DNA from: Escherichia phage ECO4
DNA: 64,000 nucleotides
Direction: 5' to 3' (one strand)
Sequence record: NC_054911.1
The translations under genes and the position numbers were made by a program. The stretch's first letter is position 1. The number at the start of each line of letters is the position of its first letter. Below the pieces are notes generated by a model. That model saw only the letters and a program-made list of their open reading frames with translations, was not told the origin of the DNA and did no database searches. Positions 2 through 50,099 of the stretch are shown here, one piece after another.

Positions 2-1450
2 CAAGGAAAAGCTGTTTGGTCTTTAGGTACTGAAATTAATTCCGGGACTTTTGTTTTGCATCATTACAAAGAAGACGGGACCCAAGGTCATACATCAAGA
101 TTTAATGCTGATGGTACAGTCAATTTCCCGGATAACGTACAGGTCGGTGGTGGTGAAGCTACTATTGCCCGAAATGGTAATATCTTCTCTGATATTTGGA
201 AAACATTTACTTCGGCAGGCGATATAACTAACATTCGTGATGCGATAGCTACCCGTGTTTCTAAAGAAGGCGACACGATGACAGGCCGCTTAACTCTTAA
301 AACCAACTCGGATGCTGTTGTTATTGATTATCCAGCAGATGAAGCGGGCTATGTTAAGGGTAAAAAAGGTGGCGCTGATAACTGGTATGTCGGTAATGGT
401 GGTGCTGATAATGGACTTGCCTTCTGGAGTTTCCAATCCCAAGGCGGTATTAATATCAACCCGAACGGTGAAGTTATTCTATCTCCACAGGGCACTAGTA
501 TATTCAATATAAACCGTGACCGAATTCATATGAACGGTGCTCACTGGGTTGCGCGTAAATCTGGTGCGTGGGGCGACCAATGGGGCTTAGAAGCACCTTA
601 TTTCCTTGATTTTGGTAGCGTTGGCGAAGATAGTTATTATCCTATTATTAAAGGCCGTTCTGTAATTACTGGTCAAGGATATACTACTTCTGTTGACCTT
701 GGTATTAGACGTACACCACAAGCCTGGGGACAAGCGATAATTCGAGTAGGTAATGCCGAGCGTGGCGACGGGCCTGTGGGTGTTTTCGAATTCCACTCTA
801 GCGGTTTATTTTACGCCCCGTCTTTAGTCCAGACTCCTGCCATTGGTGTTGGTACTGTTAACGGATTAGGCTCTCCTAGTATTGCTATCGGTGATAATGA
901 CACAGGATTATCACACGGCGGTGATGGCCGAATCAATATGGTTGCCGATGGTATGCATATTGCATCTTGGTCTGGCTCTTACCATATCCATGAAGGTCTT
1001 TGGGATACCACTGGTGCCTTGTGGACTGAAACAGGAAGAGCTATTATTTCTTTTGGTCATTTAGTCCAACAACACGATGGCTATTCAACATTTGTTCGTG
1101 ACGTTTATGTTCGTTCTGATATTCGTGTTAAAAAAGACCTTGTTAAATTTGAAAATGCTTCACAAACACTTTCAAAAATTAACGGTTACACTTATATGCA
1201 GAAACGTGGCCTGGATGAAGAAGGTAATCAGAAATGGGAACCTAATGCTGGTTTAATTGCTCAAGAAGTTCAAGCTATTTTGCCTGAATTAGTTGAAGGT
1301 GACCCTGATGGCGAAGCTTTACTTCGTTTGAACTATAACGGTGTAATTGGTTTAAATACAGCTGCAATCAATGAGCATACTGCAGAAATTGCAGAACTTA
1401 AATCAGAAATCGAAGAACTTAAAGCATTAGTTAAATCATTGTTAAAATAA
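2..1450 (+). CDS. 37: Long tail fibre distal subunit gp37, 3' partial (reading frame open to window start; listed ORF begins at TTG 56)
   Basis: Frame is open from position 2; C-terminal sequence and position immediately upstream of gene 38 and holin t; ends ...[14 protein letters not shown]. Confidence 0.8.
1115..1447 (+). other. Intramolecular chaperone / auto-processing (peptidase S74-like) domain at gp37 C-terminus
   Basis: Motif [10 protein letters not shown] followed by about 110 aa ending in a coiled coil, as in auto-cleaving tail fibre and tailspike chaperone domains. Confidence 0.55.
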
Positions 1451-1452
1451 TA

Positions 1453-1476
1453 AGAGGGGCTTCGGCCCCTTGGAGG
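1453..1476 (+). other. GC hairpin (GAGGGGC-TTCG-GCCCCTT) between genes 37 and 38, directly abutting the gene 38 SD
   Basis: Perfect stem with UUCG loop; no T-run follows, so probably an RNA stability or processing element rather than a terminator. Confidence 0.4.
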
Positions 1477-1481
1477 TTTAT

Positions 1482-2258
1482 ATGGCAGTAGCAGGACCGT
1501 GGATAGGAATTTCTGCATTGGCACAGACTGGAGACCATTGGATGGCAGGAGCAGCCGCAAGATTAAGATTGGGTGTTCCTTGCTGGATGAGTCAATTTGC
1601 AGGTCGCTCACGAGAAATTATTCACACGCTTGGAGCAGACCATAACTTCAATGGTCAATGGTTCCGAGATAGATGTTTTGAGGCAGGTAGTGCACCTATA
1701 GTGTTTAATATTACAGGTGATTTAGTATCATATTCTAAAGATGTTCCTTTATTCTTCATGTACGGAGATACACCAAATGAATATGTTCAGTTAAATATAC
1801 ATGGCGTAACGATGTATGGACGTGGCGGTAATGGTGGTAGCAATAGTCCTGGCTCAGCTGGAGGTCATTGTATTCAAAACGATATTGGTGGGAGACTAAG
1901 AATTAATAATGGTGGAGCTATTGCTGGCGGTGGCGGTGGCGGTGGCGGCGGATATTATTCTCCTTTTTCACAAATGAGATTAACCTTTGGCGGTGGTGGT
2001 GGGCGTCCGTTTGGTGCACCTGGCGGATCTATTGATATGCAATCAGGCGCAACTGCTGGTACTATTTCTGCACCTGGCTCAGGATCCGTGAATGGTATCT
2101 ATAATGGTGGAAACGGTGGTGAAGTAGGTTCCGCGGGAGGTAGATGCAATATTCGCGGTCAAGGATCTGAATATAATGGCGGCGCTGCGGGTTATGCTGT
2201 CATAGGGTCTGCTCCAACGTGGCAAAATGTTGGAGCAATATATGGTCCAAGAGTATAA
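1482..2258 (+). CDS. 38: Tail fibre adhesin gp38 (T2-type, glycine-rich motifs)
   Basis: SD GGAGG 5 nt before ATG 1482; poly-Gly tracts (GGGGGGGGGG, GGGGG) between conserved segments; directly downstream of gene 37. Confidence 0.8.
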
Positions 2259-17374: not shown

Positions 17375-17872
17375 TTATGAAAAAATTTTAAACTTTATGC
17401 ATAGAGAGTGTTTAATCCAACTTTCAGGAATGACTTTGTATGTTCCTAAAAATACCACGTTGTACAACTTAACGCCATCTTCTACCCATTGATCGGTAAT
17501 GTATCCACACATAGCGCGAGTATAAACAGCCTTTCCATCATCTTTGATAAATTTAAATTCGCAAGGAGCAATGAACTTAATAGCTTGACCGAGTTTCCAC
17601 TTAAAGTCTACACCTACATGCGAAGTATCAATCGTTTCAATTCCTTTAGCGGGAACAGCTTTCAAAAACGCAGATTCAAGAAATTTCGCACGAACATAGC
17701 CAAACTGAGGTTTAGACTTTCCATCTTTAGGAATGATACGCACTTTTACTTCAGAATCTTCATCTTTAACACCATGCTTAAGCTGAATGCTTACAATTTC
17801 GACCAATTTTCCTGCTGCTTTAGAACGGGATTTATTAGATACACGAGCAATTTCACCAATATTAATAATCAT
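17375..17872 (-). CDS. Hypothetical protein (165 aa), motB-region paralog A
   Basis: Shares C-terminal motif TDQWVEDGVKLYNVVF with the next ORF. Confidence 0.65.
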   Translation of the reverse strand: MIINIGEIARVSNKSRSKAAGKLVEIVSIQLKHGVKDEDSEVKVRIIPKDGKSKPQFGYVRAKFLESAFLKAVPAKGIETIDTSHVGVDFKWKLGQAIKFIAPCEFKFIKDDGKAVYTRAMCGYITDQWVEDGVKLYNVVFLGTYKVIPESWIKHSLCIKFKIFS

Positions 17873-17914
17873 AGTTATCTCTCACTTGTTAAAAAGATTT
17901 TATACTCCACAGGA

Positions 17915-17946
17915 CCATTATACTCTGGTCCCAAGAGTTTGTAAAC
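17915..17946 (-). promoter_or_regulatory. T4-type early promoter (GTTTAC, 18 nt, TATAAT with GAG prefix)
   Basis: Minus strand GTTTACAAACTCTTGGGACCAGAGTATAATGG. Confidence 0.55.
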
Positions 17947-26633: not shown

Positions 26634-26715
26634 GTAATTCTCCTTTTATTTAAATTACATGATTATTTATAATAATTCTCGCGGCTTTTAAGTCGTCGTT
26701 TAAATAAACGAGCTA

Positions 26716-27234
26716 TTAATAACCTCGGTCTTGACGAGCGAAGTTTTCAGCATTCTTCAGATAATAAAGTTTAAAGATTTCTTCAGCAGTAAGGCCGAGA
26801 CCTTGGAACATGTTCAGAACGAAATGAAGAATATCAATCATTTCGAATTTAATTTCCAACTGGTCTTGTGGAGACAAATCAGTAATCAGAGTTTCACGAC
26901 GTTCACCATGCTGCGACTTCCAAGGCTTCCATACAGCAGATGCATCTTTTTCGCCATTGCTCATACCACCAAGAGATGTCAGAAGTTCACGGAATTCATC
27001 GTCAATATAATCTTTCTGATTACGCAGCCAATCGACAACTTCACCTGCAGTAGCCAAATCATCAGGATGACGGTTATATTCAGGTTTATCTTTAGCTAAA
27101 CGAACCTGCAAAGATTTCTGCATATCAAGCATAACTTGCAGTGGGTCTTTTTCGTCACCGAGAATATCCCAATATTCATTTTGAGCTTTATCAGCGCCTT
27201 CGATCAGTTGCGAACATTCATTAAAGTAAGCCAT
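26716..27234 (-). CDS. 56: dCTP pyrophosphatase gp56
   Basis: 172 aa from ATG 27234 (MAYFNECSQLIEG...), SD AAAGGAAAAATA; the listed 203-aa form is an upstream extension. Confidence 0.9.
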   Translation of the reverse strand: MAYFNECSQLIEGADKAQNEYWDILGDEKDPLQVMLDMQKSLQVRLAKDKPEYNRHPDDLATAGEVVDWLRNQKDYIDDEFRELLTSLGGMSNGEKDASAVWKPWKSQHGERRETLITDLSPQDQLEIKFEMIDILHFVLNMFQGLGLTAEEIFKLYYLKNAENFARQDRGY

Positions 27235-27305
27235 TATTTTTCCTTTCAATTCATGGGTTAGTAGATTAATTATACAATAAATATATAAAGCAATAAGGAG
27301 GACAT

Positions 27306-27506
27306 ATGGTACAAAAATTAATGGCACTTGTTAATGCCATAAAAGGTAATAAAAAACGTATAGCTTTTACTATTTCTGCTATGATAGGAATTTTACTCTG
27401 GAATTTTGTTTTATCACCAATTGCTATTGCTCATGGCGTTAATATTCCAGTAATTACTCTCGATACATTCGTAGATTTAGCATTTGCTTTGGTTGGGTTA
27501 ATTTAA
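27306..27506 (+). CDS. Plus-strand small membrane protein (66 aa, two predicted TM helices)
   Basis: Strong SD AAGGAGG 5 nt before ATG; hydrophobic; lies in the gap between 56 and 61 on the opposite strand to all neighbours. Confidence 0.5.
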   Translation: MVQKLMALVNAIKGNKKRIAFTISAMIGILLWNFVLSPIAIAHGVNIPVITLDTFVDLAFALVGLI

Positions 27507-28531
27507 ATCTTAGCATATTTAGATAGCCGCATTTTAGCCATCAACCCTTGGGCAATATTATTTTTCATATATTCCATAATTTGTTCAGGGGTTGCACCTT
27601 CCTTTCTAATCATATCATTAACATCTTTTGATTTCCAGGGAGATTTGTCCCAAAACATAACCCTTTCTCCTGCATCAACCAATTTAGTCATTCGTTTAAT
27701 AGTGTCAGGATGACGAGGTTCATTATCTAAAACCCATACACGTCTATCTTTAAATGGAACAATTTCTAGGTCTAATTGACCACCCGTAATAGCTATACCG
27801 TTTTCAATAAAAAGTGAATCTATAGGTCCTTCTAGAACATATACATCACCATCTTTAACCCGTTCAACTCCATAGATTTTTGTTGCCTCAGGATAAGCTT
27901 TGATGGTGATATATTTTTGAGGAGCATCTTTCTTTAATGCACGTCCTTGAAAAGACTCAGCTTTTCCATTAGCATTATAAATTGGAATAACAAGACGAGG
28001 CTCAGATATTTCCTTTTTATATGTTCCCGGTGCTATACTATTAACTAATTTAGGCCATTCGGTTGTAAACCAAAGATATTTCCATTTATCCTTTGGAATA
28101 CAGCGAGCTTTTACGTATTTTATAATTGGATGGTCTTCCGCCAGTTTATCTAATCTAATACATGACGGAAGAGATTTAATTATTTTCTTCTCAGGTTGTT
28201 TAGAAAGTTCTTTAGGTTTTTCTACTGGACGACTTTTACCTTTTTCTTTTCTTATTTCAAAGATATACTCACGATATAAATCAGGTTCAAACTCCTTTAA
28301 ATATATTCCGATTGGTGCATGATAGTTACAGTTATAACAATGAATATTTCCTTCATTATTATCACCATAATACCATCCACGGGCTTTATTTTGGTCGGTT
28401 TTTGAATCTCCACAAACAGGGCATCTAAACCGCAATTTAAAAGTTGAACTATTATTTACTTGTGTGAATTTAGGTAAATGAGCTAATGCACGATATGCAA
28501 ACTCATTATCAATCCAAGGTATTGATGACAT
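27503..28531 (-). CDS. 61: DNA primase gp61
   Basis: 342 aa; zinc finger CPVCGDS...CYNC; matches T4 gp61. Confidence 0.95.
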   Translation of the reverse strand: MSSIPWIDNEFAYRALAHLPKFTQVNNSSTFKLRFRCPVCGDSKTDQNKARGWYYGDNNEGNIHCYNCNYHAPIGIYLKEFEPDLYREYIFEIRKEKGKSRPVEKPKELSKQPEKKIIKSLPSCIRLDKLAEDHPIIKYVKARCIPKDKWKYLWFTTEWPKLVNSIAPGTYKKEISEPRLVIPIYNANGKAESFQGRALKKDAPQKYITIKAYPEATKIYGVERVKDGDVYVLEGPIDSLFIENGIAITGGQLDLEIVPFKDRRVWVLDNEPRHPDTIKRMTKLVDAGERVMFWDKSPWKSKDVNDMIRKEGATPEQIMEYMKNNIAQGLMAKMRLSKYAKI

Positions 28532-28710: not shown

Positions 28711-29325
28711 TCATAAAAGCATTAAAATTTGGTCATCAATAGAAACATTTACTTTAGACTGTTTTTCGGATGGTAATTCATATCCACATATTACAATTTT
28801 GTGATCAATATCAAAATACACAGAAGCAATATGATTAATGCTGTTTTCAGTAAAGTCTAAATCAACATCAATATCTTTTTGACCAAAGCCCAAAGGATAA
28901 ATAATGCGAGTAATTCGATTATCTTTAACAAAGATTCCACCGACATACTCTGTACTGCGTTTAAAGTCTACACGCCGACGAAATGAAAAATATTCAGGCT
29001 CTTTATGAGCTCGGCTCATAGGACACAACGAGTAACTAGAATAAGAGATGTCAAATCCTACACCTTCGATATGAGCCATAGCGTCATGATTAAACCAATT
29101 ATAATCGTACGCCAAATCCATTAGATTATAATATGTAAAAGGCACCGGATTAACATCATTAGTCACAAGCATGTAATTAGCAACTGCTATAATTTCATTG
29201 TTTTTAACGAATACAAACCGTGATTGATGCGAATGGCCTGGACCTGCGTTTTCACGATTAATGATATAACACTGGGCACCTTTATATTTGTATGTATCTT
29301 TGCACTTGTGCATTTGATAGAGCAT
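28711..29325 (-). CDS. Hypothetical protein (204 aa), 61.x position
   Basis: ORF between primase and sp; candidate accessory or anti-defence gene by position. Confidence 0.6.
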   Translation of the reverse strand: MLYQMHKCKDTYKYKGAQCYIINRENAGPGHSHQSRFVFVKNNEIIAVANYMLVTNDVNPVPFTYYNLMDLAYDYNWFNHDAMAHIEGVGFDISYSSYSLCPMSRAHKEPEYFSFRRRVDFKRSTEYVGGIFVKDNRITRIIYPLGFGQKDIDVDLDFTENSINHIASVYFDIDHKIVICGYELPSEKQSKVNVSIDDQILMLL

Positions 29326-49883: not shown

Positions 49884-50099
49884 TTAAATTTCCCAATTAC
49901 CATTTTCATCAATAAATTTAATCCAGTCATTTACTGACCACTTGGTCGTATCGCCTTTTGGAGCAACATTTAAAGTGTATAATCCTTGTTTAAAAAGCAT
50001 TCGTTTGATATTCATATTTTCCTCAGCTGTAACGATAGCACTCGTTTGATTTGCGCTTAGCAACTCGTTGAGAAGTATTGTAATCAAAATCATCGTCAA
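49884..50099 (-). CDS. Hypothetical protein (71 aa)
   Basis: ORF. Confidence 0.5.
   Translation of the reverse strand: MTMILITILLNELLSANQTSAIVTAEENMNIKRMLFKQGLYTLNVAPKGDTTKWSVNDWIKFIDENGNWEI

Follow-up and report, generated by a model that had tools for sequence, protein, structure and literature searches.

The interval between genes 56 and 61 of Escherichia phage ECO4 is probably an empty cargo site in which a conserved, probably late gene for a membrane protein persists. The analysis covered 64,000 nucleotides of record NC_054911.1 (the window; all positions without an accession or sequence name refer to it). The window is from a Tequatrovirus, and its positions 26700–28000 match Escherichia phage 132 at 99.9% identity; over 24 kb of the window, the best match in the phage collection reaches 97%. 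A preliminary description, made from the sequence alone, had pointed out a gap of 268 bp between genes 56 and 61 and a 66-aa ORF on the opposite strand within it. Both were confirmed: the gap spans 27235–27502 and the ORF (hereafter the small ORF) 27306–27506 on the plus strand. The features of the interval, and the evidence on which each was assigned, are as follows.

26716–27234, minus strand: gene 56 (dCTPase/dUTPase), 172 aa; ORF list, Pfam dUTPase_2 match (E 1.3e-6), and dCTP pyrophosphatase annotation in phage 132 and T4.
27269–27294, minus strand: putative MotA-dependent middle promoter of gene 56; read from the sequence, with a counterpart in X01416 and a prediction in phage fPS-90.
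27276–27283, plus strand: late-promoter-like element AATAAATA, the A at −13 variant of TATAAATA; core conserved in six of seven lineages, and depletion of the motif.
27294–27301, plus strand: Shine-Dalgarno sequence TAAGGAGG of the small ORF; read from the sequence, with GGAG(G) before the ATG in all homologues.
27306–27506, plus strand: small ORF, a 66-aa membrane-protein gene (PHROG 2024); ORF list, homologue search, HMM, AlphaFold, hydropathy, dN/dS and family alignment.
27311–27340, minus strand: terminator-like hairpin downstream of gene 61, with an 8-bp stem and a 4-nt loop followed by a T-run; consensus scan.
27503–28531, minus strand: gene 61 (DNA primase), 342 aa; ORF list, Pfam, and annotation in phage 132 and T4.

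Gene 56 starts with the ATG at 27234 (minus strand), and the stop codon of gene 61 occupies 27503–27505 of the same strand. The small ORF is convergent with gene 61, and its TAA overlaps the gene 61 stop, the two reading frames sharing 4 nt at their stop codons. Its Shine-Dalgarno sequence, previously described as near-perfect with a spacing of 5 nt, is in fact perfect and is separated from the ATG by 4 nt (ACAT); the 8-mer TAAGGAGG occurs only once in the 64 kb. The 71-bp spacer between the gene 56 start and the small ORF (27235–27305) contains two overlapping divergent promoters, the late box lying within the spacer of the gene 56 middle promoter.

This layout was compared with the T4 interval (NC_000866, 16,270–18,963; X01416). 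The T4 record carries the dam methyltransferase gene between 56 and 61, as the preliminary description had stated. The two phages share the flanks, the oriA/gene 56 middle promoter and the small ORF convergent with gene 61. The T4 interval is about 880 bp longer, and it contains in addition dam with its own promoter region, located between the MotA box of the gene 56 promoter and the late box of the small ORF. The T4 copy of the small ORF (92% amino acid identity) is located at approximately 17,738–17,938 of NC_000866, flanked by the start of dam and the stop of gene 61. Neither NC_000866 nor X01416 annotates it; another T4 record has a hypothetical protein there. It had been suggested that a small antisense membrane gene has taken over the dam site. 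This does not hold, as T4 itself has the ORF between dam and gene 61. A dam gene elsewhere together with the same ORF in T4 had been named as findings that would speak against the suggestion, and of these two the ORF in T4 was found. Because the same ORF adjoins dam in T4, it is to be regarded as a constant resident of the interval and not as a substitute for dam. The variable element is dam and not the small ORF. The variable stretch is the one comprised between the gene 56 promoter and the small ORF, empty in the window and occupied by dam in T4. The interval analysed here would thus be a variable cargo site in its empty form, where the small ORF stays in place whatever the cargo. We also considered whether dam was simply deleted between repeats of the promoter −10 region, both T4 junctions sharing AATTATA(C), but make no such claim. 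As the sequences between the boxes differ, we propose neither a mechanism nor a direction (gain or loss) for the change.

We then looked for dam in the remainder of the DNA. A tblastn search of the window with T4 Dam gave a best E value of 2, and the motif IV pattern [DNS]PP[YFWH] is absent from all stop-to-stop segments of at least 120 aa in the window; the T4 positive control was detected. The earlier statement that the window has no dam-like ORF is therefore correct. For the part of the genome beyond the window, we used positions 50,001–157,000 of phage 132, the closest complete relative. No Dam homologue was found there by tblastn with the T4 Dam query, and the three matches to [DNS]PP[YFWH] lie in a neck protein, in endonuclease II and in an antisense segment. 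The preliminary description had left the choice between a dam gene located elsewhere and none at all; absence from the interval and from the window is established and, with none in the rest of phage 132, dam is very probably absent from the genome of this phage as a whole.

Such an absence is common. T4-type Dam (at least 90% identical to that of T4) is present in about 182 records of the phage collection, and the Tequatrovirus-type small ORF in about 499. The same empty junction, searched for with a 126-nt probe joining the gene 56 start to the ORF start (coverage of at least 80%), is found in 269 records, RB32 and RB14 included, and the RefSeq record of T6 likewise has no dam at the 56–61 site. 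By these counts, dam is optional: about two thirds of T4's close relatives lack it. Its absence is accordingly the majority state and no anomaly.

Other fillings of the site were encountered. One, of the type of Yersinia phage ZN18, combines dam with a 186-aa ORF that shows a weak DpnII-like match. In the IMG/VR copy of this Tequatrovirus type (L012), the ORF (1341–1901, minus strand) lies directly upstream of dam (562–1341), its stop overlaps the dam start, and its match to the Pfam DpnII (GATC) restriction endonuclease family is below threshold (E 0.0045). A 'putative restriction endonuclease' is annotated next to dam in phage Shinka as well. Taking into account the DpnII-like ORF and the Shinka annotation beside dam, the site may hold a full GATC restriction-modification pair in some Tequatroviruses. 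In phages LH2, fPS-90, WL-3 and others, a 216-aa homing endonuclease is located between gene 56 and its middle promoter, and constitutes a third filling:

L020, 837–1487, and L021, 545–1195, minus strand: HNH/NUMOD3 homing endonuclease.

The gene that persists beside these cargoes belongs to a narrow family. A homologue of the small ORF was detected by tblastn in 691 phage records, about 500 of them at 90–100% identity and about 190 at around 50%, and in almost all of the matches sampled it adjoins the primase gene. The protein is 100% identical to QWY90397.1 of phage 132, with the same length, position and orientation. It matches PHROG 2024 over its full length (E 8.2e-31, residues 2–66 on positions 1–65 of the 65-position profile); members from Kanagawavirus, Jiaodavirus and Mosigvirus and the Gaprivervirus paralogue match the same profile at E values of 1e-15 to 1e-27. 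Its location between genes 56 and 61, convergent with the latter, is that expected of the family, and it does not differ from the PHROG 2024 hypothetical proteins encoded by the primase gene in phage 132 (QWY90397.1) and elsewhere (RB32ORF030w, VR7ORF033w). The order gene 56, small ORF and convergent gene 61 is maintained in at least six Tevenvirinae lineages, T4 included; the same arrangement is seen in Mosigvirus ST0, Gaprivervirus VR25, an unassigned metagenomic lineage, Kanagawavirus PEi20 and Jiaodavirus. At least five Tevenvirinae lineages other than that of T4 have the small ORF beside the primase gene, without dam there. An exhaustive HMM search among 1.8 billion representative proteins recovered only six clusters, all from this same narrow family, and IMG/VR contributed only five close loci.

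Several individual records deserve a comment. Gaprivervirus VR25 carries a divergent tandem second copy between the first copy and the primase gene (L008, 2001–2201, plus strand), which has 23% identity, retains the W-N...P...G...P motif and matches PHROG 2024 at E 3e-27. The PHROG 2024 homologue of Edwardsiella phage PEi20, a Kanagawavirus (L022, 1474–1659, plus strand), is unannotated, as in the T4 RefSeq record; from these two cases it follows that the family is under-annotated. In the T6 RefSeq record (NC_054907), ATT replaces the ATG of the small ORF (L006, 1801–1803), and the annotated CDS begins at Met6, far from the Shine-Dalgarno sequence. The gene may therefore be dispensable in the laboratory; to judge from this record, it may be weakly expressed or dispensable in the T6 stock. 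Two Logan contigs, L018 and L019 (SRR27475519 and SRR27475520), were left out of the analysis because their sequences look C-to-T converted. The changes of their homologue (P0036) with respect to the T4-type protein are almost only of the C-to-T kind (A>V, T>I, S>L, P>L, H>Y), and few genes were called on them; they look like assembled bisulfite- or deaminase-treated phage DNA and not like a natural variant.

The small ORF shares its DNA with signals of the minus strand. The putative middle promoter of gene 56 consists of a MotA box, ATTGCTTTA, read from 27294 to 27286, an 11-nt spacer and a −10 element, TATAAT, from 27274 to 27269. Its T4 counterpart is the oriA promoter P(M)16.53, and X01416 shows the mot-box and −10 directly after dam. 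In fPS-90, a middle promoter at the corresponding position was predicted independently by the annotators, who also placed a terminator at the site homologous to the hairpin. The terminator-like hairpin of gene 61 has a folding energy of −9 to −14 kcal/mol in sequences from Tequatrovirus and is not conserved in other genera. It is encoded within codons 6–12 (M-A-L-V-N-A-I) of the small ORF. This palindrome, conserved in Tequatrovirus only, would give a hairpin 15 nt into the coding region of the late mRNA.

Late transcription of T4 depends on gp55, gp33 and gp45 and on replication; its promoters lack a −35 element and consist of a box of the TATAAATA type located about 6–7 nt ahead of the start site. 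In the window, AATAAATA lies 22 nt upstream of the ATG of the small ORF and matches TATAAATA at seven of eight positions, with a predicted start at about 27289–27291. The ATAAATA core is found 15–24 nt before the ATG in six of the seven lineages, in flanks that are otherwise unalignable, and both in the dam-containing context of T4 and in the empty context. The exception is lineage L015, with no ATAAATA in its intergenic spacer. At the first position of the element, A, G or C is found, versus T in the consensus. The window has about five-fold fewer copies of ATAAATA than expected, 8 versus about 40; they lie at 2264(+), 2416(−), 5034(−), 26670(−), 27277(+), 28897(+), 32461(+) and 55205(−); for TATAAATA itself the figures are 1 versus about 10. 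Other copies of the core are located upstream of t, soc and 49. That of soc is annotated as P(L) in X01416, and those of t and 49 we take to be late promoters. No ORF follows the copies at 28897(+) and 32461(+), which could initiate late antisense RNAs or be due to chance. The A(−13) variant is the most frequent one and accounts for 9 of the 50 T4 late promoters listed (PMC2988020). Early and middle transcripts of T4 all have one polarity, and late transcripts may have either (PMC2988020). Being antisense to genes 56 and 61, and thus opposite to the early and middle polarity, the small ORF would have to be a late gene; we infer that it is transcribed only late.

Transcription would be driven by the A(−13) variant AATAAATA, which precedes a perfect Shine-Dalgarno sequence, the same layout as that of the holin gene t. 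That gene (ATG at 2289) shares with the small ORF the plus strand, the AATAAATA variant, an AAGGAGG Shine-Dalgarno sequence with a 4-nt spacer and a membrane product. There is no sequence similarity between the two, and T has about 218 aa and a large periplasmic domain, versus 66 aa and about 20 predicted periplasmic residues. The consensus scan revealed no plus-strand terminator after the small ORF, which makes it probable that the transcript runs on, in antisense, into gene 61. The late transcript would therefore comprise a short leader, the 66-codon ORF and an antisense run into the primase gene. In the literature searched we found no transcription, translation or proteomic evidence for the small ORF, and nothing usable on ribosome profiling, start-site mapping or a name for it. 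Few tryptic peptides are expected from the 66-aa protein, IAFTISAMIGILLWNFVLSPIAIAHGVNIPVITLDTFVDLAFALVGLI being an example.

The AlphaFold model of the protein (pLDDT 80) contains helices at residues 2–12, 16–42 and 52–63. The first is basic and amphipathic; the transmembrane helix, approximately residues 16–42, includes the invariant W32, N33 and P38; a loop with G44 and P48 then leads to a short C-terminal helix of 12 residues. The preliminary description had proposed two transmembrane segments. The first is a strong one, residues 19–42, with a Wimley-White octanol sum of about −11 kcal/mol over 19 residues. The second is marginal: segment 47–66 passes the Kyte-Doolittle cut-off (1.87), but it scores only −2 on the octanol scale and includes two Asp, and the family alignment shows that in distant homologues it is not hydrophobic. 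Five basic residues precede the transmembrane helix and acidic residues follow it. We favour a single-pass, N-in inner-membrane protein as the product; for the Tequatrovirus version, two transmembrane segments are possible. It would insert with its N-terminus, carrying the five basic residues, in the cytoplasm and about 20 residues in the periplasm. The invariant Trp-Asn pair in the middle of the membrane segment, together with the Pro/Gly/Pro residues at its periplasmic end, suggests helix-helix association, either with itself or with another membrane protein. Neither the protein nor the family had a match in sequence searches of Pfam, NCBIfam and PDB, and a fold search against viral models returned, at E <0.3, only the own family.

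Two explanations that would undo all or part of the proposed reading had to be weighed, and we consider both highly improbable. The somewhat less improbable one is that dam has been relocated in this genome and not lost. The window covers only 64 kb of approximately 167 kb, which leaves space for it; however, Dam is missing from the other 107 kb of phage 132, the empty junction is common to the 269 records mentioned, and among records starting at rIIA the T4-type Dam matches listed fall at about 16–17 kb, consistent with the 56–61 locus. The other is that the small ORF is not a gene, and that its conservation reflects signals of the minus strand, such as the 3′ UTR and terminator of gene 61 or the promoters of dam or gene 56. 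The hairpin within codons 6–12, the overlap of the gene 56 middle promoter with the Shine-Dalgarno sequence, and the lack of annotation in the T4 RefSeq and original X01416 records are in line with it. Nevertheless, the hairpin is confined to Tequatrovirus and the ORF is more widespread. Moreover, changes concentrate at synonymous sites, with a dN/dS of 0.12–0.18 within Tequatrovirus (pairwise Nei-Gojobori). Between genera, synonymous sites are saturated, and yet the frame, the Shine-Dalgarno sequence, the length (61–66 codons) and residues W32, N33, P38, G44, P48 and G64 are retained (family alignment). By this pattern of substitution, the small ORF is a genuine and conserved gene of T4-type phages, under purifying selection.

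Regarding the function of this gene, we found no literature in the searches made, and PHROG 2024 bears the label 'unknown function'. That the protein is a second, small holin or pinholin-like lysis protein with two transmembrane segments appears unlikely. It is small, hydrophobic and probably expressed late, its promoter variant and Shine-Dalgarno sequence are those of gene t, its C-terminal segment passes the Kyte-Doolittle threshold, and its homologue in OE5505 is named 'Holin' in UniRef/BFVD. Against this, neither Pfam, NCBIfam nor PHROGs gives a match to a holin family, the second segment is of marginal hydrophobicity in this protein and is not hydrophobic in distant homologues, and a charged C-terminal tail is missing: the charges are at the N-terminus, and the last residues, ...AFALVGLI, are hydrophobic. 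Besides, t, e, rI, rIII and the spanins already explain the lysis of T4. No holin features back the UniProt label 'Holin', which looks automatic. A modulator of a late envelope event, be it lysis timing, lysis inhibition or membrane-associated assembly, that acts through association of its transmembrane helix is a tentative possibility. Somewhat more doubtful is the broader proposal of an overlooked, family-wide late gene whose single-pass product takes part in a late envelope process, for example lysis timing or inhibition or the assembly of membrane-bound proheads, and whose antisense transcript might help to shut down primase. T4 Imm and RI are small proteins of the inner membrane; they act on envelope events and are encoded on the early strand. 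The likeness lies in the kind of protein, the role of the small-ORF product being a guess; no homology is implied, and the small ORF is on the opposite strand.

The feature is already catalogued as PHROG 2024, and the dam polymorphism is ordinary. The interest of the small ORF is modest: in the best-studied family of phages, it appears to encode a conserved membrane protein, probably expressed late, that is absent from the T4 RefSeq annotation. The comparison also corrects a tempting misreading of the locus, as the dam-less form is the commoner one among T4's close relatives and the small ORF is the permanent neighbour of the primase gene. The 56–61 interval of these phages is a clear example of a small cargo hotspot, framed by overlapping divergent promoters, that can be empty or contain either dam, alone or together with a restriction-enzyme-like ORF, or a homing endonuclease.
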